This document shows positions 3,147-48,935 of a stretch of DNA of 64,000 nucleotides, piece after piece. The notes under the pieces are model-generated. The model saw only the letters and a list, made by a program, of their open reading frames with translations, was not told where the DNA came from and made no database searches. Both the position numbers and the translations under genes were made by a program. Source of the DNA: Azolla caroliniana (taxonomy: Eukaryota > Plantae > Polypodiophyta); the NCBI GenBank assembly GCA_043228905.1, contig JBHGNT010000020.1:10850001-10914000 (forward strand), given 5' to 3'. The stretch's first letter is position 1. Each line of letters opens with the position of its first letter.

Positions 3147-3654
3147 TGTCACAGACACACCAAGCGCGGACTAGGACGGAGCATAGATGATGGGGGCTAC
3201 GAGCGACGGATGAACTTGGAGCTAGATGTGACAAGGCTAGGAACTCTAGATGTTGTGAGAGATATGAGGGCATGAAGACAGAAATAAAGATCAAGGAGAC
3301 AAAGATGAGGCGAAACGAGAATACTAGATTGATGTGTCAATGACTGGTGTTGAATCCCTTGAAAGGGATCAAGGATGTTACAAGCATTTATACAATTTCC
3401 GAGATTGAATATCTCTAGAATATACTCAAGAAATATCTCGAGAATATACCCGTTTCAAATATACCGTACAATATCTCTAGTATATACTAACGACTAGAAT
3501 ATTTTGATTCTGAAATGTACTATACGTTAGACCATAGAATACTACACCATTATATACAAATGTATGCTTATAGGTTGAGGATGATGTCTTGGAAATGTGA
3601 GGTTGTAGGTTCAATCCTCACAAACTATGTATTTGATGTCACTGTGTCGTGATA
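3147..3654 (-). mobile_element. Solo LTR (chromovirus-type layout) with 5-bp TSD GGTTT
   Basis: TGTCAC...GTGATA termini; GGTTT at 3142-3146 and 3655-3659; interrupts the Gypsy integrase frame. Confidence 0.8.
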
Positions 3655-7060: not shown

Positions 7061-7772
7061 TGTCGGGGTTGCTACGCCCTTGCGTGTAGAAAGGAGGAGG
7101 GACCACGGGGGTCTCGAACCGAAGAGCAAGAGAGAGAGATAAGAGAGAGACCCGGTTACACAGAACCGAAGATCCGATTGCGCAGAACCGACAATCGCAC
7201 AGGGACACGGCCCAACAAACAGAGATCACAAATAAACGCCGACACAGATGGACGCAACAACGAGAGATATGTACTTATGAATGCAAGAAAATAACAAGCT
7301 AAAGCATTACAACCCACAGTGGGGCACAAAATAGATACTAACGAAAACGAACAGGGCGGCGAACAGCTGCCGACCCCCGTATGTCGCGACGCACAGAAAG
7401 GGAAAACAGGTCGGAGGTGCTGCAGGACGCACTCGGGCGTTCCACGGAACAGCGCAAGCCTCCTCGAAACCTGCACAGGTACGCGATGGAGCAGAAGACA
7501 GAGAGAGCAGGAGTGAGAGAGAAGCTCCGAAATCGGTTCGGCAGCACTTCGTCCTCTCCGCGGGAGATCCCCACTTCTCGTCTTCCTCTTCCTTTTATAG
7601 CCCGTCAAGAGGCCGTTTGGCATTAACTGCACACCAACCGAATCTCCTGCCTAGGATCCCCGTATGTACCTACCTCGTCCTTAGGTACTTCTTGGCGCGC
7701 GTGTGTGTGTGTAGAGCCGTTTCCCACGCCTTGTTCCTCCGATTCCTCTCGCGGGCGGTTTTCTTCACGACA
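7061..7772 (-). repeat. 3' LTR of the young Gypsy
   Basis: Direct repeat of 13504-14215 with TGT...ACA ends. Confidence 0.95.
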
Positions 7773-7844
7773 TCCGCCCCCACCTAACCGCGCATCCACC
7801 GGCATGCGCCAAACTAAGTTGGCACGGAGAAAACCGGCCCGCCT

Positions 7845-10800
7845 TTACTCTTCGCCTGCCGGCCCTTCCTCGGCCTCGGATCGGTCGTCGCTGCTGTCCA
7901 GGAGAATCGGGTCGGGTTCGTCGTCGTGCCGCTTCTTGAAAGCTTTGATCCTCTTCCCGGCCACGGGTATCGCTATTCTCGTACCGTCGAGTTCCGCCAG
8001 ATGATACGTCCCGTTGTCGTTGGCGCTCTGTACCGTGTACAGCCCGAACCATCTCCGTGCGAACTTCCGCGTTGCTCGGTGCTGGTTGTCGAGGCTGCTG
8101 TCGTAGACGAGCACCCAGTCACCTTGTTCGATCTTCTTCGGTCGGAGTCGGTGCGTTCGGTCGAACCTGGTTTTGTTCTTTATCCTCGCCACTCGGATCC
8201 TTTCTGCAGCTGTCTCCACGTCCTCCGGTCTCCGCTCGAGCTGTCGTATACGCGCGGCCAACAACTCCTCCCGGCTCATCTCGTCCCTCCAGTCGACCGC
8301 TGCCCATGAGGAGATTGTTCGTTCCACCGGCATGATCGGCTTCTGGCCGAACATGAGCTCTGTCGGCATGTACCCGGTTACCGAACTGTGCGTAGTCCGG
8401 TCGGCCCACAAAGCATAGGGTAGAAGTCGCGGCCAGTTGCCGACTTGGCCTCCGCATGCCCGAACCAGCGCCTTAACGATCGGCCCGTGTCCGCGCTCCA
8501 CCTTTCCATTCGCCTCCGGGTTGTACGCAGTGGTGAGCGAGAGTTTGACTCCCAGCCGATCGAACAGCTCCGCGGCTTCCTCGGCGTCCAACTCCCCTCG
8601 GTCAGCCACGATCTTCCCGACGCACCCGTACCGGCATATCACATCCTCGATCAGGAACCGACACACGGCCGCGGTCGTCTTGTTCTGAAGGGCTCGGCCT
8701 TCCACCTGGTTCGTCAGGTCTTCCCGCGCTAGCACCAGATACCGCATCTGTCCTACCCCCATCGGCATCGTCACCAGATCTACCATCCATTTGAAGTGGA
8801 TAGTCGGAGGGTACGTAGGGTGAAGCCCGTCCCGGTGTCGGACTATCGAGTGCATCTGACAACTCTCGCAAGTTGTCACGAACCGATGCACGTCCCGGTA
8901 CAATCCCGGCCACCAGTACTTCCCCTTCAGCTTCTCAAACGTCGCCCACGTTCCACGGTGTCCACCCCAAGGGCTGTCGTGGTAGGCCGTCAGCAGCTCC
9001 TCCTGTTCTTCCTTCATTGCCACCACCCGGAGCGGAGCGCCGTCCCTCTTCTTCGGGTGTTTCCACAGATAGCCATCCCGGAGAAAGAATCGGTATGCTT
9101 TCTTCCGGATCCGGTTGGCCTCGTCCTTCGTCCATGACGCATCGGGCGTCATCGTCTTCAAAAACCCACCGATCTGCAGCCACTCCCCGTCGTACTTGCT
9201 CGCGTCGAACTCGTTAAGCACCGGAGTGCTCATCCCGTCGGTCGTTATGTATGCCGCCTCGAAGAAATCCACGCCGACTTCTTCGTCCTCTGAAACCATG
9301 CCGCCCTCGTCGTCGAACCTCGCCCTCGAAAGCATGTCGGCCATGGTGTTGTCTTTCCCGGCAACGTGTCGTATTTCCGGGTCCAGGGACTTGATGTACG
9401 CTATCCACCTGAGCATCGCCAGGTCCGGAGTCGCGCATCCGGAAACCATACCGAGAATCGGCAGGCAATCCGTCTCGATGATCACTTCTGCCCCTATCAG
9501 GTAGTCTTTGTCGACCTTAACCGCCGAAACAATACCCCAGAGTTCGCGTTTAACCTGGGCGTATCCTCGTTGCCGTTTACTGAGGACTTTCGCGCCGAAT
9601 CGGATCGGAAACCGATTGCCGTCCTCGTCTTCCTGGTTCACGACCCATCCGATCCCGGTCGGACTGGTATCCACCGTTATGAATACCGGGGTACCCTTCC
9701 CGTATACCGCCTTCCGGAGTGCCGGTGCCGCTGCAAGGGCTTCTTTCAGCTTCCGGACCGATTCCGCGTGCTCGTCTAGCCATTCGAACCTTCGCCCCTT
9801 TTTCAGCAACCCGTACAGTGGCTCCGCGAGGTGTGCGTAATGCGGGATCCATATGTGGTAGAACGCGCATGCCCCCAGGAATCTTCCGTACTTCCGTGAC
9901 CGAGCTGCAGTCGGGCTTCATCGCGGAGATGGCTTCTACCTTTGCCGGAGACGGCTTCCGGCCATATGGTCCGCACAGGTGTCCGACCACCATGATTTCT
10001 GACTGCCCGAAGGCCGACTTCTCCCCGGAGAAGGTGAGTCTCGCATCCTCTAGCCTTTGCAGCACCTTCTCGCAGTCGTCGATGTGCGTCGCCACGAATC
10101 GCCGGCACCCGTCCGGCCCGATCGTCTCGTCCTTTTCTTCCACCGGGCATCCCTTGATCGGGATGTCGTCCAGAAACGGCATGGTGATGTCCGGGATACA
10201 GTCCCTCAGAACCTTGTTCATCGCATTCACCATGTGGGCCACCGAGTTGGTCCCTCCTTGCGGCAGTGTACACATCCGAACTAGGCCGAGGGGAGTTCGC
10301 ATCGTCGTAATGTCTCTGCTCTCCACGGCTAGCTGGAACTGGTCGTACCCTGAGTATAGATCCCCGACCGAGTAAATTGACCTTCCGGCGAAGGCCTCCG
10401 CGAACTCGTCTATGGTCGGTCCGATCCCTGCGTTCCGAATGGTCACTCGATTGACCGGCTGCAGGTCCTGGATGAAGCGCAACGAACCGTTTTTCTTCGG
10501 TACGGTAAACCATCGATTCGAATATGGGGCGCTCGACGGCTCGAGAATTCCCATATCAACCTTCTGCCTCAGCAGCTCCATCAACTTCGGGATGTGAGCT
10601 CTCGGCACCGGGATTGGCTTGAGATTCCATGGTACATGCGGTACCGTGAATATCACCATCGGCTCCACGATCGTCGGGTTAACGCACCCGATTTCCTCCG
10701 GCGAGAATGCGAAGGCTTTCCCGTGCCTTCCGAGCATTCCCCGAAACCGGTCTTCCTCCGCCGGCAGTAGGAACCCGCCCCCACCGATTTTGAGCTCTCG

Positions 10801-11343
10801 GAGCGTCTCGTCGGTGAAGGTGTGCCCTATGCAGGCCGGATCTCGTAGACTAGGGTCCGATGCAACCCCTTTGATTCTCGACGCGCTGTCCTCCGGTAAG
10901 GGTGCCGCGACTGGCCTTACCTTCCGGTCCACAGTCTTGTACTTGGTGCTTACGTGGGCCGTCCGAACTGACTCGAGCCCTCGACCGAAGTCCGCGATGA
11001 CTCCGTACATCTCCTCGGAACACACCGGTATCGTCCGGTCTTCGTTAAGGCCTTCTTCGACTACCTTTCCCAGCATTCCCAAGGTGTCGTCGAATGAGAC
11101 CGCCTCCACGGCTCCGTTGATTTCCTCGTCAGGGCCGAGAACTCCGCACGCTCGAAGTCTCCCCTCCGCCTTTGTCTTTTCTCGGCCGCCGATGCCGACT
11201 ATCGTGCACGCTCCGCTGCCGGAGAACAAAAATTCCCTACCTATGGTACAAGGCTTCTTCGGTTTTATCGTACAGGTGTGGGGTTTTCCCGGGGTGTCCG
11301 GACTGTCGCGGCCCCACGCCTTGACAGCCCTCTCTAAAAATCC
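7845..11343 (-). CDS. pol: Gypsy pol (RT-RNaseH-integrase), entered by -1 frameshift and broken by a 1-nt insertion at ~9884
   Basis: RT motifs LPQG and PFLDD; RNaseH VDTSPTGIG; INT H..PWGGH, CESCQ, ADRGE and NPEANGKVERG. The paralogue at 42440 reads TEVRRFLGAC where this copy has an extra A. Confidence 0.9.
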
Positions 11344-13460
11344 TCTCGGTTATCGGAGCCGAGGGAGTCGCGGTTACGCTCGTGGTTCGGCCTGACCGTC
11401 AAAAACTGGACAGAATGGCGCCCGTCCTGGCTCTTGACCCTCGCATAGGCCGAACCGTTGTCCAGCACCTTGGTCTCCATTCGAGCCGCCGTGATGTACG
11501 GCTCTCCCAGTATGACGGGGTGCGATGACGACTCCTGCACGAAGAAGTGCTGGTCTATCTCGACATCGCCGATCTTGACCCGTACATTCGGGCAGGCCCC
11601 GTGAAGTTCCTCGGTGGCGCGCGTCGCCGCCCTTATCTTCCACCCGTGCTTGGTGTTGATCGGCCATTTGCCCTTCTTATAGAAGTCCATGGACATCAGG
11701 TTGATTTCCGATCCGTGGTCCACCAAAGCTACTACCGGTTCCTGGACATCGCCGATCTTTACCGGGGTTTCCGTGGTCGCTCGGGCCCAGTGTGGCCGCG
11801 AATAGTGGCTCTCCGCCCACTCGTCTTCCAGCGCCATGTCGTCCAGGTGCGTCGTTCGCACTTCCACCGGTCTTTCCGGTTCTGTCTCCGTTGACAGCCT
11901 CTTCCGTTTCACCAAGTCCACGATGGAGTCGTGGAACTCCTTCTTGGCGATTCCCAGCACCTCCCGTAGCGACAGCTCCACCTTGCTGTCGAGGATCCGT
12001 TCCTCCAGGACCTTTCGCAAGTCCGTGGTTCTTTCTATCTCCGTCCCCAGACGGTATCCGCCCTTCTGGGGTTTATCTTGCGTACCGGCCCCGCCGGCTT
12101 CGTCCCGTCGTGGCCCGGACCGGGTCTCGTATCGCTGTGAGGGCCCGGTCGTCCCGGGTTTCCCCACCCGCTTCTCTTCTACCAGAGCCTCGTAGTTCCG
12201 GCAAGCGGCTTCCACGAAGCCCGTCTTTTCCTCGACCGGGTCGCTCCACCCGGTCATCTCCCGTACCCGTCTCTCCGCACGGTCCGATTCCTCCCTTTTA
12301 AGCCCTGCACCGGCAAGGCCTTCCAGCATCGTCGGCCAGAATCCGGCTTTGCTTTCCTTTCGGGCCTCGCCACCCCCGACTCGAATACCGGCCGACGCCG
12401 AGTAGTGGACGGTTTCCGCATGTCGGGCCGCCGCCTCTTCCATCAACCTCTTCATTCCGCCTCGCCCGTCGTTTCGGTTCAGGGCCCTTCTCGTGTCGTT
12501 GGCGTGAACCCGGCCTTCCCATAGGTACACCACCCGGTTCGTCAGCGCCTCTGCGAAATCGCCGCAGTCTTTCCGGATGTGGCCGACCCCGTCGCACCAC
12601 ATGCACCTGTTCCCTGCCGCCGGCCGTCGGTCACGAGCAGGACCTCCGCCTTCTCTGCGGGCTTGTGCGATTTGGAGGTCTTTTATCGCCCTCGTCAGTT
12701 CCTCCAACGCAGCCCCTCCAGTCGAGCCTCTCATCACGCCGGTCGGATCTGAACCGGATTCCAGCCACTCCCGAGTCTCTTCCCTTCGCATCGGCTGCGC
12801 CGGCTCGAGTTTCCTCGCCGCGACTGAGCCCGACCCGGTTGCCCTGTCATCCTCCCATTCTCGCCGTTTGTCGAAACGGCCGCAGGCTCTCTTGACCGCC
12901 GCCCAGTCGGCCGTCAGCCCGTCTTCGGTTTCTAGCAGGGCGCCCACGTGACTCCGATCCCTCTCGTCAACCGATTTGACGAACAGCAGGACCCGGCTTG
13001 TATCCAGGACCATCCTGTCAAGCGCCGAAAGGCGCGCGAAGTTCTCCTCGAACTCCCGGAGGAGTGCCGACGCATTCCTTCCTTTCCCGGGAGACTCCAC
13101 CCACTCCATGAAGCTTCGCTTCGAAAGCCGGAGCGCGTCGTCCAGTCCGTATTTTTCCAGGAGCCGACCTTCGAACTCCTCCCAGGTACGGCTCTCCGCC
13201 CGCACCTCGAGCACCTCCGCGTGGATGCTCGGCATCGCCACTCGGGGAAAACCGGCAAGACGCCTGTCTTCCGGAATGTCCCGCATTAACATTTCCGCAC
13301 CGTAGGACGCCAGGTACTTCGTGGCATCTTTTTCGGTGAATCGACCGATCGTTCCGACGACCGCCTCAATAGCTCTATCGAGGGCGCCGGTGCCCTCGCG
13401 CGCGCTTACTATCCGATCCACGGCCGAAGCCATGGCCTCTGCAAGATCCGCCCCCTTCAT
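11334..13460 (-). CDS. gag: Gypsy gag-protease polyprotein (708 aa)
   Basis: CCHC knuckle CMWCDGVGHIRKDC; retropepsin motifs VVALVDHGSEIN and VILGEPY; starts ~20 nt after the PBS. Confidence 0.9.
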   Translation of the reverse strand: MKGADLAEAMASAVDRIVSAREGTGALDRAIEAVVGTIGRFTEKDATKYLASYGAEMLMRDIPEDRRLAGFPRVAMPSIHAEVLEVRAESRTWEEFEGRLLEKYGLDDALRLSKRSFMEWVESPGKGRNASALLREFEENFARLSALDRMVLDTSRVLLFVKSVDERDRSHVGALLETEDGLTADWAAVKRACGRFDKRREWEDDRATGSGSVAARKLEPAQPMRREETREWLESGSDPTGVMRGSTGGAALEELTRAIKDLQIAQARREGGGPARDRRPAAGNRCMWCDGVGHIRKDCGDFAEALTNRVVYLWEGRVHANDTRRALNRNDGRGGMKRLMEEAAARHAETVHYSASAGIRVGGGEARKESKAGFWPTMLEGLAGAGLKREESDRAERRVREMTGWSDPVEEKTGFVEAACRNYEALVEEKRVGKPGTTGPSQRYETRSGPRRDEAGGAGTQDKPQKGGYRLGTEIERTTDLRKVLEERILDSKVELSLREVLGIAKKEFHDSIVDLVKRKRLSTETEPERPVEVRTTHLDDMALEDEWAESHYSRPHWARATTETPVKIGDVQEPVVALVDHGSEINLMSMDFYKKGKWPINTKHGWKIRAATRATEELHGACPNVRVKIGDVEIDQHFFVQESSSHPVILGEPYITAARMETKVLDNGSAYARVKSQDGRHSVQFLTVRPNHERNRDSLGSDNREDF

Positions 13461-13482
13461 TTCCTACTCTTCTGCCGCCTCT

Positions 13483-13500
13483 TTCACGTCGGGTTCACCA
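13483..13500 (-). promoter_or_regulatory. Primer-binding site complementary to the 3' end of tRNA-Trp
   Basis: TGGTGAACCCGACGTGAA, 3 nt after the 5' LTR, matches the plant tRNA-Trp 3' end ...TTCACGTCGGGTTCA-CCA (recalled sequence). Confidence 0.8.
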
Positions 13501-13503
13501 AGA

Positions 13504-14215
13504 TGTCGGGGTTGCTACGCCCTTGCGTGTAGAAAGGAGGAGGGACCACGGGGGTCTCGAACCGAAGAGCAAGAGAGAGAGATAAGAGAGAGACCCGGTT
13601 ACACAGAACCGAAGATCCGATTGCGCAGAACCGACAATCGCACAGGGACACGGCCCAACAAACAGAGATCACAAATAAACGCCGACACAGATGGACGCAA
13701 CAACGAGAGATATGTACTTATGAATGCAAGAAAATAACAAGCTAAAGCATTACAACCCACAGTGGGGCACAAAATAGATACTAACGAAAACGAACAGGGC
13801 GGCGAACAGCTGCCGACCCCCGTATGTCGCGACGCACAGAAAGGGAAAACAGGTCGGAGGTGCTGCAGGACGCACTCGGGCGTTCCACGGAACAGCGCAA
13901 GCCTCCTCGAAACCTGCACAGGTACGCGATGGAGCAGAAGACAGAGAGAGCAGGAGTGAGAGAGAAGCTCCGAAATCGGTTCGGCAGCACTTCGTCCTCT
14001 CCGCGGGAGATCCCCACTTCTCGTCTTCCTCTTCCTTTTATAGCCCGTCAAGAGGCCGTTTGGCATTAACTGCACACCAACCGAATCTCCCGCCTAGGAT
14101 CCCCGTATGTACCTACCTCGTCCTTAGGTACTTCTTGGCGCGCGTGTGTGTGTGTAGAGCCGTTTCCCACGCCTTGTTCCTCCGATTCCTCTCGCGGGCG
14201 GTTTTCTTCACGACA
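13504..14215 (-). repeat. 5' LTR of the young Gypsy
   Basis: Direct repeat of 7061-7772, adjacent to the PBS. Confidence 0.95.
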
Positions 14216-25066: not shown

Positions 25067-25411
25067 CACACATATGGTTGTTCATCTTGATCCCAATCAT
25101 GGTGAACAATACGCGTTATAGTCGTAAGCACAATTCATTATTTCCTTGTAAATATATTGTCTCCATTTTGATATGATCTATCAATGACAGATTCTTCGCC
25201 TTCCACCTTCCTAAGCCTACATACAATTATTAGGAACATGTCATACAATTATCAAGGACATGTATACATATGGTTGTTCATCTTTATCCCAATCAAGGTG
25301 AACAACACTAGTTACAGAATCGTAAGTGCAATTCATTCTTTCTCTCTAAACATATGTTTCCTTTCTTCTTTGATCTAACTATCATTGATAGGTTGTTCAC
25401 CTTCCTAAGCC
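24889..25411 (+). mobile_element. Old plus-strand chromovirus 5' LTR and PBS (R-U5-PBS duplicated, contains (CA)n); its gag resumes at 39636-40680
   Basis: 25261-25405 aligns with the element-strand R-U5-PBS of the LTR at 39305 (aatcaaggtgaacaacac...ttgttcaccttcc). A second copy lies at ~25072-25220. Confidence 0.6.
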
Positions 25412-28400
25412 TCATGAGGTCTTGGGTTTAATCCCTACCTTCCTCCGTGGCATATGTCTATGACATTATCCTTCCTCTAAGGTCGCCTCCTAGCATTCGC
25501 GGCCGGTTTATGAGGGTATCGTTGATGAAAAACGCGAATTGCTTCTGGTGCATTTTGTAAATGTGTAATTGGTTCCCATGTGGCATCCGAAAGAGGGTAA
25601 CCTTTCCTTAAGACCAAGTATTGAAGTCTTCGGCGACGCAAGCGGGAGTCGAGGATCCGGTCAACCTCATACTCCTCACTTGTCGATAATTCCACGGGCG
25701 GCGGCGAAGGAGGTTGTCGTCCCGGAATGTGAGAAGGATGGTAGGGTTCAAGGAGAGAGATGTGGAAAACATTGTGAAGCCGAAATGTGGGGGGAAGCAC
25801 TAACTGGAAGGCGACTAGGTTAACGCGCGCGAGGATACGGAAGGGGCCTAGCTTTCTGTAGTCGAGCTTCACGTAGGGACGAGTGGTTGCGATGTGGCGA
25901 CATAGCAACCAAACCATGTCACCAACTGCAAAGGTCGGTGCGACCAAGCGATGTCGGTCAACGTGAGCTTTATATTGTTTGCCAACGGCATGGAGCTCGA
26001 GGGAGAGGTCACGCCTCTCGGCAGACGGAAGTCTCCGGAATGGAAATGCTGAAATGAGGGTGGAAACTATAGTTTGCAAAGAATGGGGAAACCTTAGTTG
26101 AGGCATGGATATTATTATTGTAGGCAAATTCTGCCATGGCAAGGAAGTCCACCCAATCATCTTGTTGGAACCTGATTGTACACCGAAGGTATTGTTCGAG
26201 GATTTGGTTGACTCTTTCGGTTTGGCCATCAGTTTGAGGGTGGTGTGCAGTTGACAAGTTCACAGAAGTTCCGAATGTCTGTAGAAGTCGGCACCAGAAG
26301 TGAGAGATAAATTGAGGACCTCGATTAGAATGACATCCTCAAGGAAGTCGTGTAATTGGACGACATTTTTCAGAAAAAGTTCAGCCGTCTCCTCCCCCGA
26401 AATGGCTTTCACACATGGGACAAAGTGAGCCATCTTCAAAAACCGATTGATGACCACTAGCACTGTGTCATGGTCACTGACCCGAGGAAGGTCGGTGATA
26501 AAGTCCATGGAGAGAGATGCGCAAGGTCGACTGGGAATTGGAAGTGGTTGTAGAAGGCCGTATGGACGATGGTGAGCAGCTTTGGAGCGAGCATAGACGT
26601 CACAAGTTTTGATAAATTCTTTGACCAATTTCCAAGGTTGGGGCCACCAAAACCCCCGAGACAGCAATGCCAGCTTTTTCGTGACCCCAAAGTGTCTAAC
26701 AAGAGGATCATCGTGGCAATTTTGTAGTACTCGGATGCGACATTTGCCAACTGGTATATAGAGGGGGTGATTACGATAGAGTGGCCCATCTTGAGTTGTA
26801 AAGTGACTCAGATCCGAGCTTTGCATTTCCTAGGATGGGTTGTCGAGGCACGCCATGATGTTAGTAGCGAAATGGTCTGATATGGTTGCTTGGGCGATTT
26901 CGTTGAGCAAGGAATCATCATGCAACATATAGATTGTGAACATGTGGAGTTGATCGTGCCGCAATAAACAATGCAATTGTTGAGAATATGCGTCGTCACA
27001 TGGGCGTAGTGCAAAGTCAAGTCGCCGAGACAGAGCATCCGCTTTCCCATGTTGAACGCCGGGTCGAAATAAGATTTCGAAGTCGTAGTCGGCGAGAAAA
27101 GATGACCAGCGAGCCTGCCGCCGATTCAACGTACGAGTGATGGTGAAGTATATGAGATTCTTGTGGTCGTTCAGCACCTGAATACGATGTTGGGCCCCAA
27201 CCAGATAGGGTTGCCATTCGGTGAAGGCCGAGATGATAGCTGCAAGCTCCTTGTCGTAGACCGGATAATTGATTTCCGGGGTTGTAAACTTCCGAGAGTA
27301 GAAGGCGACCGGATGCACGGTGCCATCATCACTAGGCTGAGACAAGACGGCACCTATGGCAAAGTCGGAGGCGTCGGTTTCAACCTGGAAAGGGCGGGTG
27401 GGGTCGGGGTGGACTAACACGGGGGCGGAGAGAAAAGTTGCTTTGAGGGCATTAAAAGCATTGTGTGTCGCAGGGGTCCAAAGAAATGGAGTATCTTTCC
27501 GGGTAAGCTAGATGAGAGGTTGGACTAGGTAAGAGAACACGTTTATAAATCGTCTATAAAAATTTGCAAAACCAAGAAATGATTGTAACTCTTTCAGCCG
27601 AGTCGGGAGAGGCCAATCAGTGATTGCCGCAACCTTGTGTTCATCCATTTTGATCCTGGTAGGGGAGATCATGTAACCCAGGAATTCAACAAAGGTCCTA
27701 TCGAATTCGCATTTCCCACTTTTGGCGAAGAGCCCATATTCCCGGAGTTTGGTGCTGGTGTGTGTTCTCCTCCCAGTTGGAAGAAAAAAACTAAGATGTC
27801 GTCAAGGTAGATGACCACGAAATGATCGTGATACTCTCGAAAAATATCGTTCATCATGTGTTGGAAGACGGCCAGAGCGTTGGTAAGGCCGAATGGCATC
27901 ACTTTGTACTCGAAATGTCCATAGCGCATTCGAAAGGTCGTTTTCCACTCGTCTCGAAGCTTGATGCGCACCAAATTGTAGGCGCCCCGAAGGTCGATTT
28001 TGGAGAAGATATGCCCAATTTGGTGTCAGGAATAGTACTGAGACAGAGAAGAAATTAGTACTAAGAGGAATAGAGGGTGTAGAACACTCGAGAGAGAGAG
28101 TGTGAGATCGAGGGAGAGAAAATTATGACAACGATATATTATGTGAGAAGAATATACAAGGAAGGCTAGGAGGCTTAAGACTGGCGTTGAACCAATTTGG
28201 TTCGAAATAATGCCTTGTGCCTCCTTTTATAGTGTTCTTAGGAGTAGTCCTGAAGCTTCTAAAATGTTCTAGAGAAATTTGGAATATACATTAATTTTCT
28301 ATAGTAAAGCTTAAATAAAAATAATATATTATGTATTACAATAGATAGTGTAATGGTCAAGAGCTCGACCCATGTAACATAAGGTCATGGGTTCAAGTCT

Positions 28401-31400
28401 TGCTTTATCATGACACTATCCCCCCTTTAAAACGATGAGTGTCACGAGTCGTTTTGGATTGAGGACCTGGTTTATCTGGATATTGACAATGGAAGTTTTC
28501 AAGAAGAGCACGAGCATTGGTCACATTCTCTATTGGTTCCCAAGTACGCTCGCTGGGACTATATCCTAGCCAATCGACTAAATAGTAGAGGTTGTTGCGA
28601 ATAATCTTAGAATCGAGGATGGCGGTAACCTCGTACTTAGGTCCATCTTCAAGTTCGATCGGGGGTGGAGGTTGTGGAATACGTCCTGGGATGGTGTTGT
28701 CTTGATAGGGTTCGAGAAGAGAACTATGAAACACCAGATGTATGCGAAGTTGCGAGGGTAGATCGAGATGAAAAGCGATATCATTAATCTTTCTGATAAT
28801 ACGGAAAGGAACTAATCGCCGATAATCAACCTTCTCGCATGGGCAAGTAGTCTTGATGTGTCGTCGTAGTAGCCATACCCGATCTCCAATGTTAAAATTG
28901 TATGGAAGCTGATGACGATCCGCGTAAACCTTGTGTGTTTGTTGAGCTTGTTGTAGATGAGTAGATAAATCTGCTTGTATCTTGTGTAACCACTCCAAAC
29001 GATCCTCTGCGCAAGGATTTGTGGGTAACTCTAGGGTTTCTAAAATAGACCACCGGGGGTGACAACCCATATAAGCATAGAATGGCGTAACTTTAGTCGA
29101 TGAGTGGACAGAGTTATTATAGGCAAATTCGGCGAAGTGGAGAATATCCGCCCAGTCATCGTGATGATAACTTAGCAAGCACCGAAGATACTGCTCCAAC
29201 GTTTGATTTGTTCGTTCTGCTTGGTCGTCGGTTTGCGGTTAGTAGCCGAAGGAGAGGTTAATGGTGACCTTGAGCATATTAAAAAGGTGCTTCCAGAATT
29301 TCAAGACGAACTGGGGTCCACGGTCGCTGATGATATTATCAGGAAGGCCATGATGCCAAAATACTTCACGCATGACAATTTCGGCGGTTTCTTCACTGGA
29401 GATTTCCTTAGTAAATGGGAGGAAATGAGCCATCTTCGTATATCAATCTACTATTGTTAAAATCACATTGAATCCTTTAGAGACTGGAAGATCTGTGATG
29501 AAATCTAGAGCAATGGATTGCGACGGCTTGCTTGGAATTGGTAATGGTTCTAATAAACCATATGGATGATGCCTTGGCATTTTTGTTCTACAACATGTAT
29601 CACAAGTCTGAACAAAATCTTCGACAAATTGTCGCATACGGGGCCACCAGAATGATCGTTGTACTAAAAATAATGTCTTAGTACTACCAAAGTGCCAACT
29701 GTATATGTGTCATGATAGTTTTGGACTACTCGAAGGTGACAAGAACCATTAGGAACATACAAGAGTTTCTTAAAGAATAGTAATCCATCATGACATTCGA
29801 ATTGTCGATAGTCCGTACCTAGTTGTTGCGACTGTGAACAAGATGCTCGAGAGGGATCAATTTGTGCTAGAATGACTTGGGCGAAAGCATCTGACTTCAA
29901 GTCCTCACGTATGGTATCAATAACGTGGGAATCCAAGGGCATGCCGAAGACCTGTGTTGCTTGTAGTCATGCTGGTCCCAAGATTACTTGCTTTTGGTTA
30001 TCGAGAGTTGGCACGCCGGGATGTGGTGCTAGATACGAATGCCCTAACAAAGCATCTGTCTTCCCTTGGTGCTTCCCCGGATAATATTTAATTTTGAAGT
30101 CGAAACGCGTGAGGAATTGGGTCCATCGAGCTTGACGTCGATTTAACACACGATTACTCTGAAAGTAGGCAAGGTTTTTGTGATCACTGAATATGGTGAC
30201 TTGATGAGAGGATCCCTCTAGAAAATGCCTCCATTGCGTAAAAGAGTCCACTATTGCTAATAGCTCCTTATCATGAATTTCATAGTTGATTTCGGCGGTG
30301 TCAAACTTGCGTGAGTGGAAAACCACAGGATGTAGGTTTTCATCATTATCTTGTTATGACAGAATGCTGCCCAATGCGAAATCTGACGCGTCAGCTTCCA
30401 TGATGAATGGTTTTTCCGGATCAACGTGAGCTAGAATAGGAGCCGATGTAAATGCCTTCTTAAGATTCTCAAAATCCATGTTTGCTTCTTCAGACCAAAC
30501 GAACGATTGTCCCTTCTTAGTAAGTTGTGTGAGAGGCAGAACAAGCTTTGAGTAATCCTGTATAAACTTGCGGTAGAAATTGGCAAAGCCTAAAAAGCAT
30601 TGCACATCTCGCACCCGAAACTACATTTTTCCAGCTTTGCATTTCTTGAAGTCGTTTTAGTACTAACAGTACATGAGAATCATGCTCTTCTTGGGCCTTC
30701 GAATAAACCAGTAGATCATCCAAATAGATGATCAAACAAACATCCAAGAGATCTCAAAATATATCATTTGCCATGTGTTGGAAGACTGTTGGCGCATTAA
30801 TGAGGCCGAACGGCATGACCGTATACTCGAAGTGCCCATATCTGGTGCGAAACACGGTCTTCCATTCATCTCCTGGTCGGATCCGTACGAGCTTATATGC
30901 TCCCCGTAAGTCTATCTTTGTGAAGAACCTTGCACCATTGATCCGTTCTAAAAGACTTGAGATAAGGGGAAGTGCATACCTATGTCTGATGGTGACCTTA
31001 TTCAAGCCACAGTAATCTACAACGAGACGAAGTGATCCATCCTTTTTCTTGATGAAGAAAATGGGTGCGCTGGCTGGAGATTTCGAATGCCAAATGAAAC
31101 CATTTTCCAAATTCTCCTCTATATAGGCTCTGTTACACACAGTGCTCGGCCACAACCAAGGAATAGGATCAACTCACAGAAAACAGGAAATACAAAATGC
31201 ACGAAGACAATAGAGAGAAGAGTACACAGGATGTTTTACGTGGAAAACCCTAAATGGGAAAAACCACGGGAGTCCTCAGACTCCAACCATCACTATAAAC
31301 AGAGATGTACAATGGTGAAGCTACAAGGCAACAACCTTGAGCTCACTGTCTTCGCCACAGGCGGCGGTAATACACAGAGGCAACGACCTCTTCGTCTCTC

Positions 31401-31603
31401 TCTCTCTCTCTCTCTCGGCTGCTCACTTAGCTCCCTCTAAGTGGAAAACCAGAAAAATGAGTAACAGCAACGAAACTGTTTGCCCTAAGTCATATTTATA
31501 CACATATGACTTTCGGGCTATTTACAAATATAGCCTCGAGGGCCCTTGGCAAACATATTCACAAATATGTCCCCGCATCCGGATCTCTTTCCGGGTACAT
31601 TCG

Positions 31604-31687
31604 TCATCCGGCTCCGTAGCCGGGGTCTTCATCATCCGGCTCCGTAGCCGGGGTCTTCATCATCCGGCTCCGTAGCCGGGGTCTTCA
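31604..31687. repeat. 3 x 28-bp U3 tandem repeat in the Copia LTR (also present in the other LTR)
   Basis: tcatccggctccgtagccggggtcttca at 31604, 31632 and 31660. Confidence 0.9.
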
Positions 31688-31751
31688 TTCCCGATTCCCG
31701 GACATCTGACCATCCCATCCGGAGGGACCGTAATCCCAACAAACTCCCCCT

Positions 31752-34700
31752 TCACTTCGGCATGGGATGTCTTTCCAGTCCGACCCTCTTCCGGCACGCT
31801 TCCATCTTGTCGGGTGTGAGCGCTTTGGTCAGCATATCTGACCCGTTCTCGTCCGTGTGGATCTTCGTCAGCACGAACTCCTGGTCTTCTATCCTTTCCC
31901 GGATCCAGTGATATCTTCGCTGGATGTGCTTCGTCCGGGAGTGATAGGCCGCGTTCTTCGCAAGGTGGATGGCACTCTGACTGTCGCAGTAGAGTCGGTA
32001 CTCCTCCTGCCGGATACCGAGCTCTCTAATGAAGTCCTTCATCCATATTATTTCCTTGCCGGCTTCAACAGCCGCCATGTACTCCGCCTCCGTGGTTGAC
32101 AACACAACCGTCTTCTGCAGCCTCGACTGCCACGAAACAGCTCCCCCTGCATACGTCATCACATACCCTGATGTGGACCGGCTGGTATCTGCATCAGCCG
32201 ACATATCCGAATCGGTAAAGCCGTCGAGTTCGGGCTTACCGGAGCCGAATCGGAGGCACACGTTTGCCGTGCCCTTCAGGTATCGGAGTATCCACTTGAC
32301 CGCGTTCCAGTGCTCTTTGCCGGGATTGCTCATGTACCGGCTCACCACTCCGACTGCATATCCTATGTCCGGTCTTGTACACACCATTGCGTACATCAAG
32401 CTTCCGACGGCAGAGGCATATGGTACTTTCATCATGTCCTCCTTCTCAGCCTTTGTCCTGGGGCTTTGCTTGCTGGACAACTTGCAGTTTGCCGGGAGGG
32501 TTGACCCGACCGGTCTTGCTTCCGACATGTTGAACCGGTGAAGCACCTTTGTCACGTACTTCTCCTGTGACAGCCACAACTGCTTCTTCTTCCGGTCCCG
32601 GATGATGTGCATCCCTAGTATTTGCCTCGCCGGACCCAGGTCCTTCATTGAGAAGGTTCGGTGAAGCGCTTTCTTCATCATCCGTATCTTGACCTGGTCT
32701 CGTCCGACGATCAACATGTCGTCCACGTACAGGAGGAGTATTAGAAAGTCTCCTCCTTCGAACCTCTTCACAAACACGCAGTGATCAGACTGCGTTTTGT
32801 GGTACCCTTCGTCGGTCATGAAAGAGTCGAACTTCCGGTACCATTGCCGGGGAGCCTGCTTCAGTCCGTAAAGGCTCTTCTTCAACCGGCATACCAGGTG
32901 CTCCTTCCCTTTCTTCTCGAATCCTTCCGGTTGCTGCATGTAGATCTCTTCTTCGAGGTCACCGTGAAGGAATGTCGTCTTCACGTCCATCTGTTCTACC
33001 TCGAGGTCCATGCTTGCCGCTATGCTCAGCACCGTCCGGATGGAGGTCATCTTCACTACCGGGGCAAATATCTCGTCGAAGTCGACGCCCTTCTTCTGCT
33101 GGAACCCCTTCACCACGATCTTGGCTTTGTATCTCGGGGGGTTTCCGGCATCTCCCGGTTTCAGCTTGAACACCCACTTGTTTCGAAGTGCCCGCTTTCC
33201 TTTCGGCAACTCCACAAGTTCATATGTGTGGTTCTCATGCAGGGAATCCATCTCCTCCTGCATGGCACTTAACCATCTGCGGCTATGGGTGTCAAGCTTT
33301 GCTTCTTCAAAATTCTCCGGCTCCCCCTCGTCGGTTAGCAGCACGTGCTCTGGTTCCGGAAATCTCCGGGGGGGCCTTCTCTCTCTTAGGGGATATCTCC
33401 GTTCCGGAGCTTCGGTAACCGGCTCCTCCGTTTCCTCTTCATCCGAATCCATTTCGGGATCGGGGCCGGTTCCGGTATCAGTTTCATCTTCCTCGGCCGG
33501 TTCTGTTTCTTCACCGTCTTCGGCCGGATCCTCGAGTGCTAACCGGTCCCTTGCCGGTCGGGACTGCTCTTCGTAGAGTTGATCCTCACCGGTCGACTTG
33601 GAGCTCTTCATCTTCTTCTCCGACTCCCAGTCGGCGAGTGTCTTGTCCTCCATGAAGATGATATCACGACTCCGGAATATCTTCTTGTCGACCGGGTCCC
33701 ATACTCGGTAGCCGAACTCGTCATCGCCGTAACCGAGGAATATGCATGGCCGGGTCTTTGGATCTAGCTTTCCTCTCCGGTCCTTTGCCACATGCACATA
33801 TACGAGACACCCGAACACCTTCAGATGCCGGTAGGATGCTTCCCTACCGGTCCACACTTTCTGCGGCGTGTCTCCGTCCAAAGGTACTGAGGGTGATCTG
33901 TTTATCACGTATGTCGCCGTCGACATTGCCTCAGCCCAAAACCCCTTGGGTAGTTTCGCATGCGCCAGCATACTCCGGACCCTCTCCATTATGGTCCGGT
34001 TCATCCTCTCGGCCAGCCCGTTCAGTTCCGGCGTCTTCGGCACAGTAAACTCGAGCCGGATTCCCTTCGAGCGACAGTACTCCGCGAACTGCCCCCGGTA
34101 TTCCCCTCCGTTATCCGCTCGTATCGCTTTCAGCTTCTTGCCGGATTCCCTTTCCACTCTCGCGTGGAGTTCTTTGAAGACGCACAACACTTGGTTCTTT
34201 GTCTTCAACGGTGCCGTCCACAGCTTCCGGCTATGGTCATCTATGAATGTTATGAAGTACTGGGCTCCGCCATGTGACTTCGTTTCTACCTGACACACAT
34301 CAGTGTGTACCAACTCCAATGGTACACTACGTCTCATTGGTGGTCTTGAGCGGAAGGAGGTCCGGTTTTGCTTACCGGCCAGACAGTCGGTACACTTCCC
34401 CAGGTGTACGTGCTTTACCGGTATCAGGTTGTCTTCGGCAAGCCTCTTCATCCCCTTCTCGCTCATGTGGCACAGTCTCTTGTGCCACAGCTCACCGGTA
34501 GTGTCAGCTGCCACGTTCAGCTCCTCCGGACATAGCCGGGAATTCATCAGGTACAGTGTGTTGACCTTCCGGGCCCGAGCCACTATCAGGCTCCCTTTGC
34601 TGAACTTCATGACACCGTTCCGGATGCTACCCGTGTAGCCTTCATCGTCTAGCCTCCCGGCCGAAATCAGGTTCAATCAAACCTCCGGAACGTGTCGAAC

Positions 34701-35825
34701 ATCCTTCAGCAGCATCTTGCATCCGGTTGATGTCATCAGCCACACGTCTCCTATGCCGGCAATCCGGCATGTACCTTCATTTCCCATCCGGACACAGCCG
34801 TGCTCACCGGCTGTGTAGGATGAGAAGTATTTCTTCTCCGGGGTCAGGTGGAACGACGCTCCGGAATCGACCACCCAGGTCATCTCTTCACCGGCAAGGT
34901 TCAGCTCCCTCTCTTCGGTAATGAGCATTATCTCTTCTTCACTTGCCGCGAGTGCCGTCGTTCCTTTCCGGTCCTGCCCTCGCCGATCCGGACCTCTCCG
35001 GTCCGTGGCTCCCCGGTATGCACCGTTTCGCTCCGGTGACTTCTTCGAATCGGTACCGTCGGTTCCGTTGTCTTTCCGGAAATGCCGACAGTTCTTCTGG
35101 AAGTGCCCCGGCTTCCCACAGTAGAAGCATGTAGGTCTTCCCCTCGACTGCGACCGTGTCCCCGACTTCTCCCGTCTTTGCGGACTCCGGTTCCGTTGTC
35201 TTCCCCGTTCCGATTCGGTAAGCAGCGCCTTCGAGTCGGAGGCCGGTTCTTTATCTCTCCGACGCGCTTCTTCATTTAGAATACTTGTCTTTACCGTTAG
35301 TAAAGACAAGTTCTCTTCCTTACAGGAGGTGCTGAGAGTAACTACCAAGTTCTCCCAGCTCTCCGGAAGGGTACACATCAGCATGATGGCTTGCATTGCG
35401 TCATCCAACGGGAACTTGATCGCCGCAAGCTGGTTCACGAATCCCATGAACGTGCTGACGTGTTCGACCATGCTCTCGCCGTCCCGGTACTTAAGATTCA
35501 CTATCTTCCTCATCAGGGAGGTCCGGGTCAGAGCATTCTTCCTCTCATACAGTCCGGACAGCTTCTGCCACATCTCATAGGCGTTCGTATCGTTCGCCAC
35601 ATGTTGCAGAACACTTACATCGACATATTGCCGGATCGTCGCTACAGCTTTCCGGTTCAGGAGCTTCCACTCCGACTCTATTACCCCCTTGGGTGTCTCG
35701 GCATTGTCGATCGGTTCGTACAGGTCTTGGACGATGAGAAGGTCTTCCATCTTTATCTTCCAGTCGGCGTAGTTCTGTGAGTTCAACACCATCATGCCCG
35801 GAGGCCCACTACCGCCGCCTTCCAT
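31752..35825 (-). CDS. Copia gag-PR-INT-RT-RNaseH polyprotein with one in-frame TGA at 34677-34679
   Basis: CFYCGKPGH, WVVDSGAS, LWHKRLCH, FIDDHSR, MDVKTTFL, LYVDD, STTEAEY and CDSQSAIHL. The two ORFs are in the same frame, separated only by TGA. Confidence 0.9.
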
Positions 35826-38800
35826 TTTCTGTGTTACCGTCGCTCTGATACCACTTGTTACACACAGTGCTCGGCCACAACCAAGGAATAGGATCAACTC
35901 ACAGAAAACAGGAAATACAAAATGCACGAAGACAATAGAGAGAAGAGTACACAGGATGTTTTACGTGGAAAACCCTAAATGGGAAAAACCACGGGAGTCC
36001 TCAGACTCCAACCATCACTATAAACAGAGATGTACAATGGTGAAGCTACAAGGCAACAACCTTGAGCTCACTGTCTTCGCCACAGGCGGCGGTAATACAC
36101 AGAGGCAACGACCTCTTCGTCTCTCTCTCTCTCTCTCTCTCTCGGCTGCTCACTTAGCTCCCTCTAAGTGGAAAACCAGAAAAATGAGTAACAGCAACGA
36201 AACTGTTTGCCCTAAGTCATATTTATACACATATGACTTTCGGGCTATTTACAAATATAGCCTCGAGGGCCCTTGGCAAACATATTCACAAATATGTCCC
36301 CGCATCCGTATCTCTTTCCGGGTACATTCGTCATCCGGCTCCGTAGCCGGGGTCTTCATCATCCGGCTCCGTAGCCGGGGTCTTCATCATCCGGCTCCGT
36401 AGCCGGGGTCTTCATTCCCGATTCCCGGACATCTGACCATCCCATCCGGAGGGACCGTAATCCCAACAGGCTCGAAGGACTTCTAACTCGGTTGGTGACA
36501 AATTGTAGATCGGTCCCCATGGTGGCTCTTTTCTGGGCTGTAAATCGATGGGGCAATCATATGATCGATGGTGAGGAAGCGTATTGGCTTGTACTTTATC
36601 GAAAACATCGGTATAATGATGATACTTCTTTGGAAGTTGAATGGTGGACTCCTCTTTAGTGGTGTCGAAGGGTTTTATTGATATTGCGAAGAGAAACATT
36701 TCTTCCTTGCATCCTTCTTCCCGCAACTGATGTAGCGAAATGGTTGCCATCTTATGAGTAGATCCTCGGGCTTGTCAATACCAGATTTCTCTTGTTCTCC
36801 AATCTATGTCTAGGTTATGTAATTCGAACCATGGTAATCCTAAAACAATGGGATGTTTTGGGATACTAATTATATTAAATGATACTACACACACTATATT
36901 ATCTAGGACAATATTAACGGGCTCTAACTCTTCTATGATATTTCCGGAAGCAATGGGACAACCATCAATGACTACTACAGAGGCTAGACACATGAGTTTT
37001 CTGAGAGATATATGATGAGCTTGGGCAAAATTCCTATCCATGAAGCAAGAATTAGCTTCGGAATCTAGAAGTGCTAAGACATGTACTGGAGGGGTACTTT
37101 TAGTACTAACTGTTACTTGGGCTACGAACACATTGCTAACTTGCTTAGAGGGAATGGAACCACTAATGGGTTGCACATATCTAGGGTTGTCTAACCAAAC
37201 GACTCCTATTTTGGCTGAACTTAGTCGTTTAACTCTTCTTCTAACTGACTAAGGACATCAAATTTGTTCGCTAGATTTGGGCTATTAGTACTATTATGAC
37301 TATTAGATATTCCTACTAAAATAGACTTGGGTTTAGTACAATTAGAACTAGCAACTATTTGGTTTACTTGTCTTCTTGGCCTATGGGGACAGTTTACTAC
37401 AATATGCCCTGGTTCATTGCAATAAAGACATAGTCGATTTGCTCGACGTCGTTGCTTTTCTTCTTCCAAGAATGGTCCGCGACGACGTGTAGTGTCAATC
37501 TCCATCGGAGTCGAAGTATTCACTGGAGATGCATTATATGAATCCCTCGAAAAAGGTGGGCTGTGATCTTGCCCTCGACATTTGGAATTGTCATTCCGAA
37601 CGTCGTTCAAAAAGGCGGTTGTCGCATCTCTTCGCGCAACTGATTGCTTCTGTTAATGACTTTGGTTCTTCGGGGAAGGTCAAGAGTAAATCCTTGACAT
37701 CGTTGCATAAACCATAATGAAATTGCTCCATCAATGCTTTTGATCATCCCAAGGGATATTGGCGGTGAGTAGGTGGAAATCTACAGCATATGCGGAGGCT
37801 GGATGATCACCTTGGCATAATCGTCGAATTTTGTTGATTGTTGTCCTTATGTTGTCAGTGTCATGATATGGGTTCGAATCTTGTCCTAATACAATCGGAT
37901 GTCAGGGGGTTGCAATGAGGTAGAACGTGAGTTCTTCTTGGTGCACCCCGACTTGAACTACCAACGGGATAGTGGCTTCGGTAATAGCCCACAAAGAGAG
38001 AACCCGACCGTCGATCGCTTCAATGGATATGGGTTGTGATGTGCGGACGGTGGGGATATTATGTGCACGGACAAATGATTTATCGATAAAGCAAGTAGAT
38101 GCTCCAGAATCGAGCAAGGCATGAGAATTTATTGAAGTCAAACCAAAACAAAGACTTACTTGCAAAGAAAACCCTCCTAATGGCAGAACAGAGTTGTAGG
38201 AGCATGGAGAAGGTGAGTACGAGAAGCATCCAGTGGCATGGCTCCTATTGCAACCGGACTTGGTCGTTTTCCTGTTGTCGAGGAACCTCCGCGAGACGTG
38301 CACGATGAATTGGTGCCGCGGGCCCCGCACCGGGCAGTGGCGGATGACATGGTCGGGGTTGCCACAATAGAGACAGAGTCCATTGTCCCGATGATGTTGG
38401 CATTGGGCTTCAGTTAGTGGTTGGAACCAAGCATGGTCAATCTCCATCGGGGTATGGAAATTGAACTCCGTCATGGTATGGGTATCACTAGGTGATGGTA
38501 AGGTTGGTGTGGGAGACAACTAGGGCCTAGTGATTGATGTGTTTCGGGAAGCATGAGATCTGCGAGTCCCCCGTTCTTCTTGACGAAGTTTGAAGAGACG
38601 ATTGTCACACTGGAGAGCTTGGGAGATTACTTGAGACAATGATGTGGGCTCGGGGAAGTTTAAGAGAAGGGTCTTGATGTCATTTCAGAGATCGTGACGG
38701 AAATGTTTGCATAGGGCTTGGTCATCCCAATTGACATCGCAGGCAATTTGACAAAACTCTGAGGCATAGACCGAGGCTGGACGCGAGCCTTGTTGGAAAG

Positions 38801-39635
38801 AATAATCTTTGTGAGTGTCGTTCGTCGCCGATCTGTCTCGCCAAATGTCACTTCGAGCTCCTCAATGAAAGCGGTGAAGTTTTCTAAGAGAAGGGATGAC
38901 GTCTCGATCAAGGGTGCAAACCACACTTGCACCGGCTCGGAGAGATGCGTGCTTACAAGCCCAACTCGAGAAAAGTCACTAGCATAATGTTGGGGTTGTA
39001 ACCGGATGATAAGACGAATTTGGTTGATGAAGCCGCGAAGATATGCCCTCGTGCCGTTGAATTTGTCCGGTATGCTGATGGTTGGTTCGAGGACATATGG
39101 ATGGGAAGAGGATGTGGTTGGGCTTGGTGCCAACATTGGTTGTGACTCGGCGGGTGGTGGATTTCTTGAAGTGTCGAATTGCAACTCTAGTAATGATTCC
39201 CGAAGGATTTCATTCTTTAGTTGAAGTTGTTGCAAGGCTGTCATGATTTGGTTTAGGTTGTCGATGGTGTCGGACATGGTAGCAAGAAGGGAAGGTGAAC
39301 AAACTGTCACGGACAAGTATAATAGAGCAAAGAGAAGACAAGACTAGAACACAAGAGAGAGGAAAAGAACAAGAACTCAAATTATAGAATTCGTACTAAC
39401 TGGTGTTGTTCACCTTGATTAGAATCAAGGTGCACCTGAGTATTTATACAAGGCAAAGCTATGTAAGCCACCTAGAAATAGAGGATGCATGAGGATGCAT
39501 ACAATAGAGAATGCATGAGAATGTGTGCAACCTAGAAACTTCCAATGTTCAATCTACACTGGTAGGGTTACCCAATAGAGACCATCATGTCTTGGGTTCA
39601 ATCCCTACCTTCCTCCGTGGCATATGTCTATCACA

Positions 39636-47783: not shown

Positions 47784-48935
47784 CATGAGTGAAGATTCAC
47801 CGTTCTCGATTGTTTGTCATCAGACTCATCGGTTTCTACTGAAGAGTATTGTTTGTCGACAGACTCACCATATTCTATTGAAGAATATTGTATGTCGACA
47901 GACTCACCATATTCTATCGAAGAATATTGTTTGAGCTCATCTACATGGAATATAAATAATGACACATGTGAAGAGTTCTCTATTGAAGAATACGATATTA
48001 ATAAAGATACGGAGAATGAAGGTAGTGCCAAGGAAACATTGAATAACATTGGTGATGGTCACAACAAAGAATTAGATTGTAACAAGGTTACACCAACCTC
48101 TATGCAGGAAGAGAAATCTGGGAGCCAATGCATATTAGAAGAATCCCACGAAGAATTCGTCTGGCTAGATTTAGCTTGGTGACATTAGATAAACAGATTG
48201 GATTTTATGTCAAAAAAATATGTTGTGCCCGTGGTTGTATGTCTATGATTGGAAAATCAAAGTTGTGAGAATTAAGGCGATACTATTTTTCGATGATCGG
48301 TGATGAGCAAGACACTTACCTCGAGTCACATATGCAACTAGTATCTGACAAATGTACGGGGATCAAAGTATCATTCGAGTATTATATCTTCCATGCGCAA
48401 CAGATATGTAGAGTTGCATTCAAAATGTGTTAGTAACATGCGACTACATAGAGTATAACAACGTCTACTTAACGGGGATCAGATGCTCAATTGTAAAGAG
48501 GTTCCAAGTATGAAAGGTGCAATTGGAAGACATGCTATTGGTTGGATGAAAACTTACTTTCAGTTAAATTGTGAAGTAATGCCCACTACAGGTAGGATGC
48601 ACCTTTCTGATAATTATACACGTCGGGAAGTTTATGATGTCTATCGATCTGATATGTTGGGCTCACGTAATAAGTCTATCACCTATAGCCAATTCACAAG
48701 ATTATGGAGAGCTCAGTTTTCAAATGTTATCATTCCTCGTAAAGTACGTATGGGGTATTGCTCCATTTGTGCAAATCTTAAAAGTTTGACTAAAGGTACA
48801 AAGACATCAATGGAAAAGGATATGAGTATGGAGAGCTCGGTTTTCAAATGTTATCATTCCTCGTAAAGTACGTATGGATTCACAAGATTATGGAGAGCTC
48901 GGTTTTCAAATGTTATCATTCCTCGTAAAGTACGT
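47784..48935 (+). pseudogene. Disrupted N-terminal part of the DNA transposase gene
   Basis: Acidic 13-aa repeats, CCARGC and ICRVAF segments with stops, then ORF 48483-48866, broken by a duplication/triplication at ~48690-49010. Confidence 0.55.

Follow-up and report, generated by a model that had tools for sequence, protein, structure and literature searches.

The stretch of DNA analysed here, hereafter the window, comprises 64,000 nucleotides of Azolla caroliniana (contig JBHGNT010000020.1, positions 10,850,001 to 10,914,000 of the forward strand) and is filled by a nested stack of retroelements. Two of them, elements A and B, carry within their LTRs (long terminal repeats) the boxes of a tRNA-type RNA polymerase III (Pol III) promoter, complete in B and damaged in A, and this A/B-box module is our subject. 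Element A lies on the minus strand and runs from its 5′ LTR (39305-39635) through gag and protease, an insert of element B, reverse transcriptase (RT), RNase H (RH), integrase (INT) and chromodomain to a 3′ LTR that stops after 53 bp (25413-25465). Element B, sitting inside A and itself split by a Copia element, ends in the order SH3, chromodomain, polypurine tract (PPT), LTR B (28024-28415). Both contain the Pfam domains SH3_Tf2-1 and Chromo with RT/RH/INT upstream, which is the Ty3/gypsy order with a C-terminal chromodomain on the integrase. An aromatic cage (Y/F..W..Y) is present in the chromodomain of element B and in the related loci displayed; its tryptophan is replaced in the window copy of A. 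The primer-binding site (PBS) of element A is an 11-nt complement of sequence 32 nt past its own TATA box, and self-priming sites of this kind (11-12 nt of perfect complement, 31-33 nt after TATA) were found in 5 of the 12 elements tried (window A and the related loci L004, L009, L011 and L018). As these elements self-prime like Tf1, a tRNA is unnecessary for their priming. Judged by domain order, cage and self-priming, with a tree drawn from integrase C-termini of loci only, we assign the hosts of the module to the autonomous, self-priming Tcn1-like chromoviruses. The features around LTR B are as follows.

28024 to 28415, minus strand: LTR B, the 3′ LTR of element B, a Tcn1-like chromovirus; TG...CA ends, loose contig ends
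28226 to 28231, minus strand: TATA box, presumably LTR B's own RNA polymerase II (Pol II) promoter
28252 to 28269, minus strand: heat-shock-element (HSE)-like TTCnnGAA repeats in the U3 region of LTR B; one intact here, three in L001
28304 to 28323, plus strand: AT-rich patch at what would be the position of transcription factor IIIB (TFIIIB)
28346 to 28356, plus strand: A box (tRNA positions T8-G19), antisense to the element, 9/9
28382 to 28386, plus strand: AGGTC variable-loop motif, the best-kept part across families
28390 to 28400, plus strand: B box of LTR B; most related copies have G, the canonical base, at 28395
28416 to 28429, minus strand: PPT of element B
28411 to 29238, minus strand: integrase C-terminus of element B with SH3 (Tf2-1-like) and chromodomain (28489-28635), Y/W/Y cage

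The edges of LTR B are backed by loose contig ends, at 28415 in four of four runs and at 28024 in one, and such ends also indicate a very high copy number for family B in the four runs. The A box starts at 28346 and the B box at 28390, a spacing of 44 nt that includes AGGTC at 28382-28386; both boxes are antisense to the element, and 15 nt separate the end of the B box from the outer end of the LTR. We scored the boxes by their match to short IUPAC A and B motifs (maximum 18). LTR B reaches 18/18, as against shuffled LTR starts, none of which reached 17 (0/660) and one of which reached 16 (1/660). An earlier note on this DNA, made from the letters alone, had described such a module at the outer U3 end of three different chromovirus LTR families; every motif it quoted lies at the position claimed, and its description of LTR B holds in full. 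The other copies in the window are less complete.

3147 to 3654, minus strand: solo LTR of a third family, with weak A box (3563-3574), AGGTT (3600-3604), B box (3608-3618) and target site duplication (TSD) GGTTT
25413 to 25465, minus strand: 3′ LTR of element A, cut short, retaining B box (25425-25435) and AGGTC but no A box
25480 to 26259, minus strand: integrase C-terminus of element A with SH3 and a chromodomain whose cage tryptophan is replaced here
37853 to 37893, strand not assigned: rearranged LTR-end fragment (about 40 nt) where elements A and B meet, with B box (37871-37881), without A box
39292 to 39302, minus strand: self-priming PBS of element A, pairing with R sequence 39406-39416, which starts 32 nt past the TATA box (39441-39448)
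39305 to 39635, minus strand: 5′ LTR of element A, with B box (39595-39605); a 44-nt deletion at 39560/39561 takes out most of the A box

The word that the earlier note had read as the A box of LTR A, ACACTGGTAG, spans the junction of this 44-nt deletion, which is defined relative to the related locus L079; the undeleted family A copies (L049, L060 and L079) hold the real A box at spacing 44. For the 3′ copy of LTR A and the box at 37871, the B box that had been claimed is present, and what surrounds it is a 53-bp remnant and a rearranged fragment of an LTR end, respectively, both lacking an A box. The solo LTR has a B box of 9/9 and a weak A box (5/9) at spacing 45, and reaches 24 bits in a leave-one-out profile, in which shuffled windows gave 0-1 matches at 16 bits. 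It has no attached coding sequence and no match among the 80 related loci described below. A chromodomain accompanies LTR A and LTR B, and the chromovirus status of the third family is suggested by its TATA/R layout, which is like that of family A. Neither the old LTR at 57871, as had been said, nor the window's Copia and other Gypsy LTRs gave a module match. One of these Gypsy elements is young (7061-14215, 712-bp LTRs 99.9% identical) and has a sense-strand B-box-like word near its U5 end (7120 and 13563), without an A box. Next to the truncated 3′ LTR of element A, and fused to it, lie two tandem opposite-strand pieces of a related LTR, comprising R/U5 and PBS (25070-25412).

Three simple identities for the module were tried and rejected. 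A functional tRNA gene is excluded by ARAGORN, which found zero tRNAs in the window and in 37 loci, and by Rfam, which found no tRNA in the window; on the best module (L034), the Rfam tRNA match was 11.6 bits with an E value of 7.4, against a gathering threshold of 29, and the stems pair at chance. Insertion of a tRNA-derived short interspersed nuclear element (SINE) was rejected because the B box is only 15-48 nt from the LTR end, which the module abuts, and no tail or TSD was seen; the earlier note had named an independent SINE insertion as an outcome that would overturn it. A priming device was rejected because priming is done by the elements themselves and because, in A, L004 and L009, the B-box strand of U3 shows no complementarity to their own R/PBS (by eye).

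Relatives were sampled through the integrase C-terminus alone, as the best 80 of 539, all on metagenome contigs; scans of viral contigs yielded nothing. Twenty-four of these loci share one contig-name prefix and are called host-type; several are 85-93% identical to the window elements, and the LTR of L001 is 85% identical to LTR B. Since three (L008, L010 and L015) end too early, 21 could be assessed, and 18 of them have an antisense module at the start of the LTR, with both boxes present in 17 and just AGGTC and B box in one (L031). The exceptions are two degenerate copies (L011 and L048) and L018, which has no module. From the B box to the U3 end, the module-bearing loci have 15-48 nt. Among the 56 loci of other types, the module was seen in none of the 37 with a locatable LTR start, where no score exceeded 13/18, and the module profile had no match in any of the 56, so that within this sample the module is restricted to the host lineage. 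When 446,216 bases were scanned blind on both strands, 17 distinct sites reached at least 16/18; 14 of these lie at LTR outer ends, all antisense. The claim that the module always lies antisense at the outer U3 end of protein-coding chromoviruses is therefore borne out clade-wide in the loci. Two further matches lie elsewhere: one antisense A/B-like match in the lengthened protease-RT linker of L004 (L004:1010-1063, minus strand; one of the 17 linkers displayed), which we treat as chance or family-specific, and two module-like units close together in L002 (L002:380-535), apart from that element's 3′ LTR.

Conservation was assessed on 11 family representatives, ten of which have an integrase (41-76% identical). 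Mean pairwise identity was highest for AGGTC (0.90), followed by the B box (0.69) and the A box (0.60), and was low upstream (0.35), in the anticodon arm (0.33) and downstream (0.28). Within the A box, T8, G18, G19 and the next T are near-invariant, and AGGTC is 0.94 identical across the two clades that carry the module. Because anchoring on the boxes inflates their identity, 21 module-less LTRs were anchored in the same way as controls. Two features not used in scoring separate the sets: AGGTC occurs in 11/11 families and an AGGTC-like word in 0/21 controls, and the A-B spacing is 42-45 in 11/11 families compared with a scatter of 38-52 in the controls. The family alignment and anchored controls thus agree with the earlier proposal that the boxes are kept better than their flanks and at fixed spacing. 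By contrast, the stems pair no better than cross-family controls (acceptor 0.39/0.39, anticodon 0.42/0.37, T(49-51) 0.55/0.56), which argues that the DNA boxes, and not an RNA fold, have been kept: the cloverleaf is lost while the promoter positions are retained across divergent families. This pattern points to purifying selection on the boxes as DNA.

The same data bear on two readings in which the tRNA likeness is idle. In the first, U3 took up at least one tRNA gene or tRNA-SINE head that now decays as a passenger, the letters in common being those universal to tRNAs. Degenerate copies (L011, L048 and window LTR A), the non-significant constraint within a family (see below) and A boxes of 11 and 12 nt in two separate clades, which would fit separate captures, are in its favour. 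Neutral decay should, however, hit boxes and stems alike, yet the boxes are near-invariant and the stems at chance; the module is retained in 18/21 LTRs despite unalignable flanks, and no SINE TSD, body or tail could fit in the remaining 15-48 nt. We consider such a relic very improbable, box retention, stem loss and the anchored controls having already largely refuted it. The second reading takes the kept words for sense-strand Pol II cis-elements, such as a W-box-like TGAC core, and draws on AGGTC being the best-kept word and on HSE-like arrays also lying in U3. However, the TGACC/T form occurs in just 4/11 families, and T8, G18, G19, the T-loop letters, the 42-45 spacing and the weak whole-unit Rfam tRNA alignment would be left unexplained, so that we give this reading scant credence.

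Upstream of the A box, the interval from -42 to -23 has an AT content of 0.82 compared with 0.61 further in (p 0.004, 10 pairs; the interval was picked after viewing the alignment), and the same comparison in 15 module-less LTRs gave 0.66 against 0.61. The TFIIIB-binding region of plant tRNA genes, as given in the part of PMC13578239 available, matches the position of this patch. The promoter architecture is therefore complete, and it could be the antisense Pol III RNA that is selected: starting about 10 nt before the A box, it would read out over the LTR end and tune the element through double-stranded or small interfering RNA, interference or local transcription-linked effects. A weak excess of CAA (5/11 families; 77/2000 shuffles), the near absence of T4 runs between the boxes (1/16 loci) and a weak D-stem signal would suit this reading. 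On the other hand, there is no fixed oligo(T) terminator, the first TTTT lying 0 to 119 nt past the B box and none occurring within the 400 nt searched in L001, L003 and L020, and the acceptor, anticodon and T stems are randomised. We regard it as unlikely that an RNA is the selected product; its predicted route would be the PPT and chromodomain strand when it starts in a 3′ LTR, and the flanks when it starts in a 5′ or solo LTR. Accordingly, of the outward antisense promoter proposed in the earlier note, the boxes, tRNA spacing and AT-rich region stand, and the idea of a defined antisense transcript is weakened by the absent conserved terminator.

The constant adjacency of the module to the U3 end could also reflect a role in integration, in which transcription factor IIIC (TFIIIC) and TFIIIB would help to tether or position the cDNA from a binding site 15-48 nt away from the U3 attachment site, or in which the module serves as a landing pad for Pol III-targeting elements; Ty3, Tj1 and DGLT-A target Pol III genes. 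Against this, LTR B, the solo LTR and the loci are all free of inserted elements upstream of the A box. Among the loose contig ends listed, the sole large mixed cluster is the LTR edge (32-65 contigs per run at L001:5053); sites upstream of the A box have no more than 4 per run. Moreover, the distance from module to LTR end varies threefold, and the 37 loci contain no tRNA gene, a weak test given that they are mostly collapsed contigs. A role in integration therefore seems improbable.

The closest published precedent is Helenus (TRIMp3; Kojima 2024, PMC10886601), which was absent from the earlier note. In the sections of that paper available to us, Helenus likewise has tRNA-derived LTR sequence with conservation centred on boxes A and B, and is known from one plant family (Selaginella). 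It differs in being non-coding, shorter than 1.3 kb and tRNA-primed, whereas the present hosts encode gag-pol with a chromodomain and self-prime. In Helenus-1_SMo, the tRNA lies sense in mid-LTR with an apparently intact cloverleaf (by eye) and a tRNA-type PBS, whereas the present boxes are antisense at the U3 edge and the Pol II TATA is kept; being so placed, the module cannot make genomic RNA. The same sections state that other Repbase LTRs gave tRNA matches, although only TRIMs (terminal-repeat retrotransposons in miniature) were analysed, and that autonomous partners are expected to use Pol II. Since those matches went unanalysed, unreported cases may exist. Cassandra and Ajax TRIMs also conserve Pol III promoter motifs in plant LTRs; according to the same part of PMC10886601, theirs are 5S-type (A-IE-C), sense, drive the element's own RNA and belong to non-autonomous elements. 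Tcn1 chromoviruses of non-seed plants share with the present hosts the order gag-PR-RT-RH-INT-chromodomain, where PR is the protease, together with the cage, self-priming PBS, PPT and 5-bp TSD, and the portions of PMC2864245 and PMC6317226 that we could consult do not mention a Pol III module. None is present in the SM-Tcn1 LTR (PMC2864245 supplement S3, by eye) or in 37 other Tcn1-like LTR starts. In SM-Tcn1, the sequence past the 5′ LTR is complementary to R (supplement S3, by eye) and would be a self-priming PBS, though the paper reports none. The available part of PMC3601003 mentions neither B box nor Pol III, and a literature search whose coverage excluded most subscription journals, Repbase and REXdb turned up no report of A/B boxes lying antisense in the LTRs of autonomous Tcn1 elements or other plant chromoviruses.

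In a tree of integrase C-termini from the 80 loci (L031 and L039 left out), the module occurs in two separate clades, starred in the tree, which differ in D-loop form (11- or 12-nt A box) at the same total spacing. The sister group of the A-type clade, from other sources, has no module, and L018, also without it, is the first branch within the A-type host clade. On a quick tree of 38 of the 80 rows, a single clade of all host-type elements was not rejected (approximately unbiased test, p-AU 0.117), and a single clade of the module-bearing and truncated elements without L018 was marginally rejected (p-AU 0.038). Candidate histories are a single origin followed by losses, an exchange of LTRs between lineages sharing a host, and two captures, and the source would presumably be a tRNA gene or a tRNA-SINE head. 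The carriers are likely one non-seed-plant lineage. The nearest named relatives of the window chromovirus integrase are Ceratopteris proteins (about 50%; no close named one), and the window Copia has named relatives solely in land plants (58-68% identity); the stretch also recurs in leaf and plant metagenomes. This Copia, inserted in the RT of element B (31131-36468), is young (613-bp LTRs 99.5% identical), and its polyprotein open reading frame (ORF) is split by a stop at 34677. Elsewhere, the window contains a long ORF with DUF7869 (E 1e-50) among retroelements, preceded by short tandem duplications (48459-50732), and an array of about 83-bp repeats with a 268-bp higher-order duplication (567-1361).

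The promoter has been kept although the fold of its RNA and a terminator are missing, and it faces outward from an element already equipped with a Pol II TATA; the module is therefore best read as a DNA site serving TFIIIC and TFIIIB. We judge that it is probably a selected TFIIIC-type site; that it has been kept in U3 as a TFIIIC/TFIIIB platform acting on chromatin is our favoured reading, held at about even chances, and whether the chromatin role is its main benefit seems to us similarly balanced. On this proposal, a tRNA-derived type-2 Pol III promoter, lying antisense at U3's outer end and consisting of AT-rich patch, A box, AGGTC and B box, would likely recruit TFIIIC and TFIIIB, and the bound module would form a barrier or open-chromatin anchor separating the flanking DNA from the enhancer and TATA box of the LTR. 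This is suggested by the location of the module, between the flank and the HSE-like/TATA zone, together with the cage-type chromodomain. Cage chromodomains bind methylated H3, and the cage residues are present in the chromodomains of module-bearing elements. The chromodomain may thus send the elements into heterochromatin in the host, where the module would keep their own promoter open. A cage is found in 95% of Tcn1 elements according to the part of PMC6317226 available, and TFIIIC/TFIIIB barriers are established in yeasts in the accessible portions of PMC9540200 and PMC13578239: tDNA, extra TFIIIC (ETC) and B-box barriers of budding and fission yeast likewise place TFIIIC-type boxes at a boundary with no need for a functional tRNA. 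They differ in being host chromosomal, not borne by mobile elements and, in those portions, not described in plants, and the barrier role of the present module is putative. As a separate observation, arrays of at least three TTCnnGAA/GAAnnTTC units lie between module and TATA in the U3 of L001, L003, L005, L021, L025, L034 and L039 and are rare in other LTRs; the HSE-like zone has no common variants in family B. Module-bearing elements may be heat-inducible.

Several points weigh against the proposal of a chromatin-acting platform. The 24 host-type loci come from one contig-name prefix and many are collapsed repeats, so that hosts were not independently sampled. The available text of PMC13578239 describes no plant case of barrier function for Pol III. 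The module is missing from the majority of Tcn1 relatives that share this cage chromodomain, among them SM-Tcn1 of Selaginella (by eye) and the host-type family L018, and is hence not needed for the life cycle. Variation in family B is lower at the invariant positions than in upstream U3 (mean minor share 0.008 compared with 0.054), a difference that is not significant (Fisher p 0.32). The D stem holds a weak pairing excess (32/44; 141/5000 permutations; p about 0.03), several families have another base at G10 of the A box, and A boxes are weak in L020, L021, L011, L048 and the solo LTR. Finally, the model offers no explanation for AGGTC being better kept than the A and B boxes.

The module is real and lineage-wide, and selection on it is very likely. 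Published Pol III promoters in LTRs are confined to TRIMs, tiny and non-coding, whose RNA they drive; since the present boxes face backwards and belong to protein-coding elements with a retained Pol II promoter, they must serve another purpose, and the conservation pattern points to DNA-bound TFIIIC. Carried to its fullest form, the idea is that heterochromatin-seeking chromoviruses domesticated a tRNA promoter as an LTR-encoded barrier, gained or swapped in two Tcn1 clades of one plant lineage, and so seeded thousands of TFIIIC sites, which we put forward only tentatively and think somewhat doubtful. In a very high-copy family, naturally occurring modules that are intact, degenerate or deleted offer a direct comparative test of tRNA-type boxes as plant chromatin barriers. 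If the idea is true, retrotransposons would have spread TFIIIC sites genome-wide in the host lineage, and if the module does act as a barrier, it would be the first plant Pol III barrier and a new anti-silencing strategy of LTR retrotransposons.

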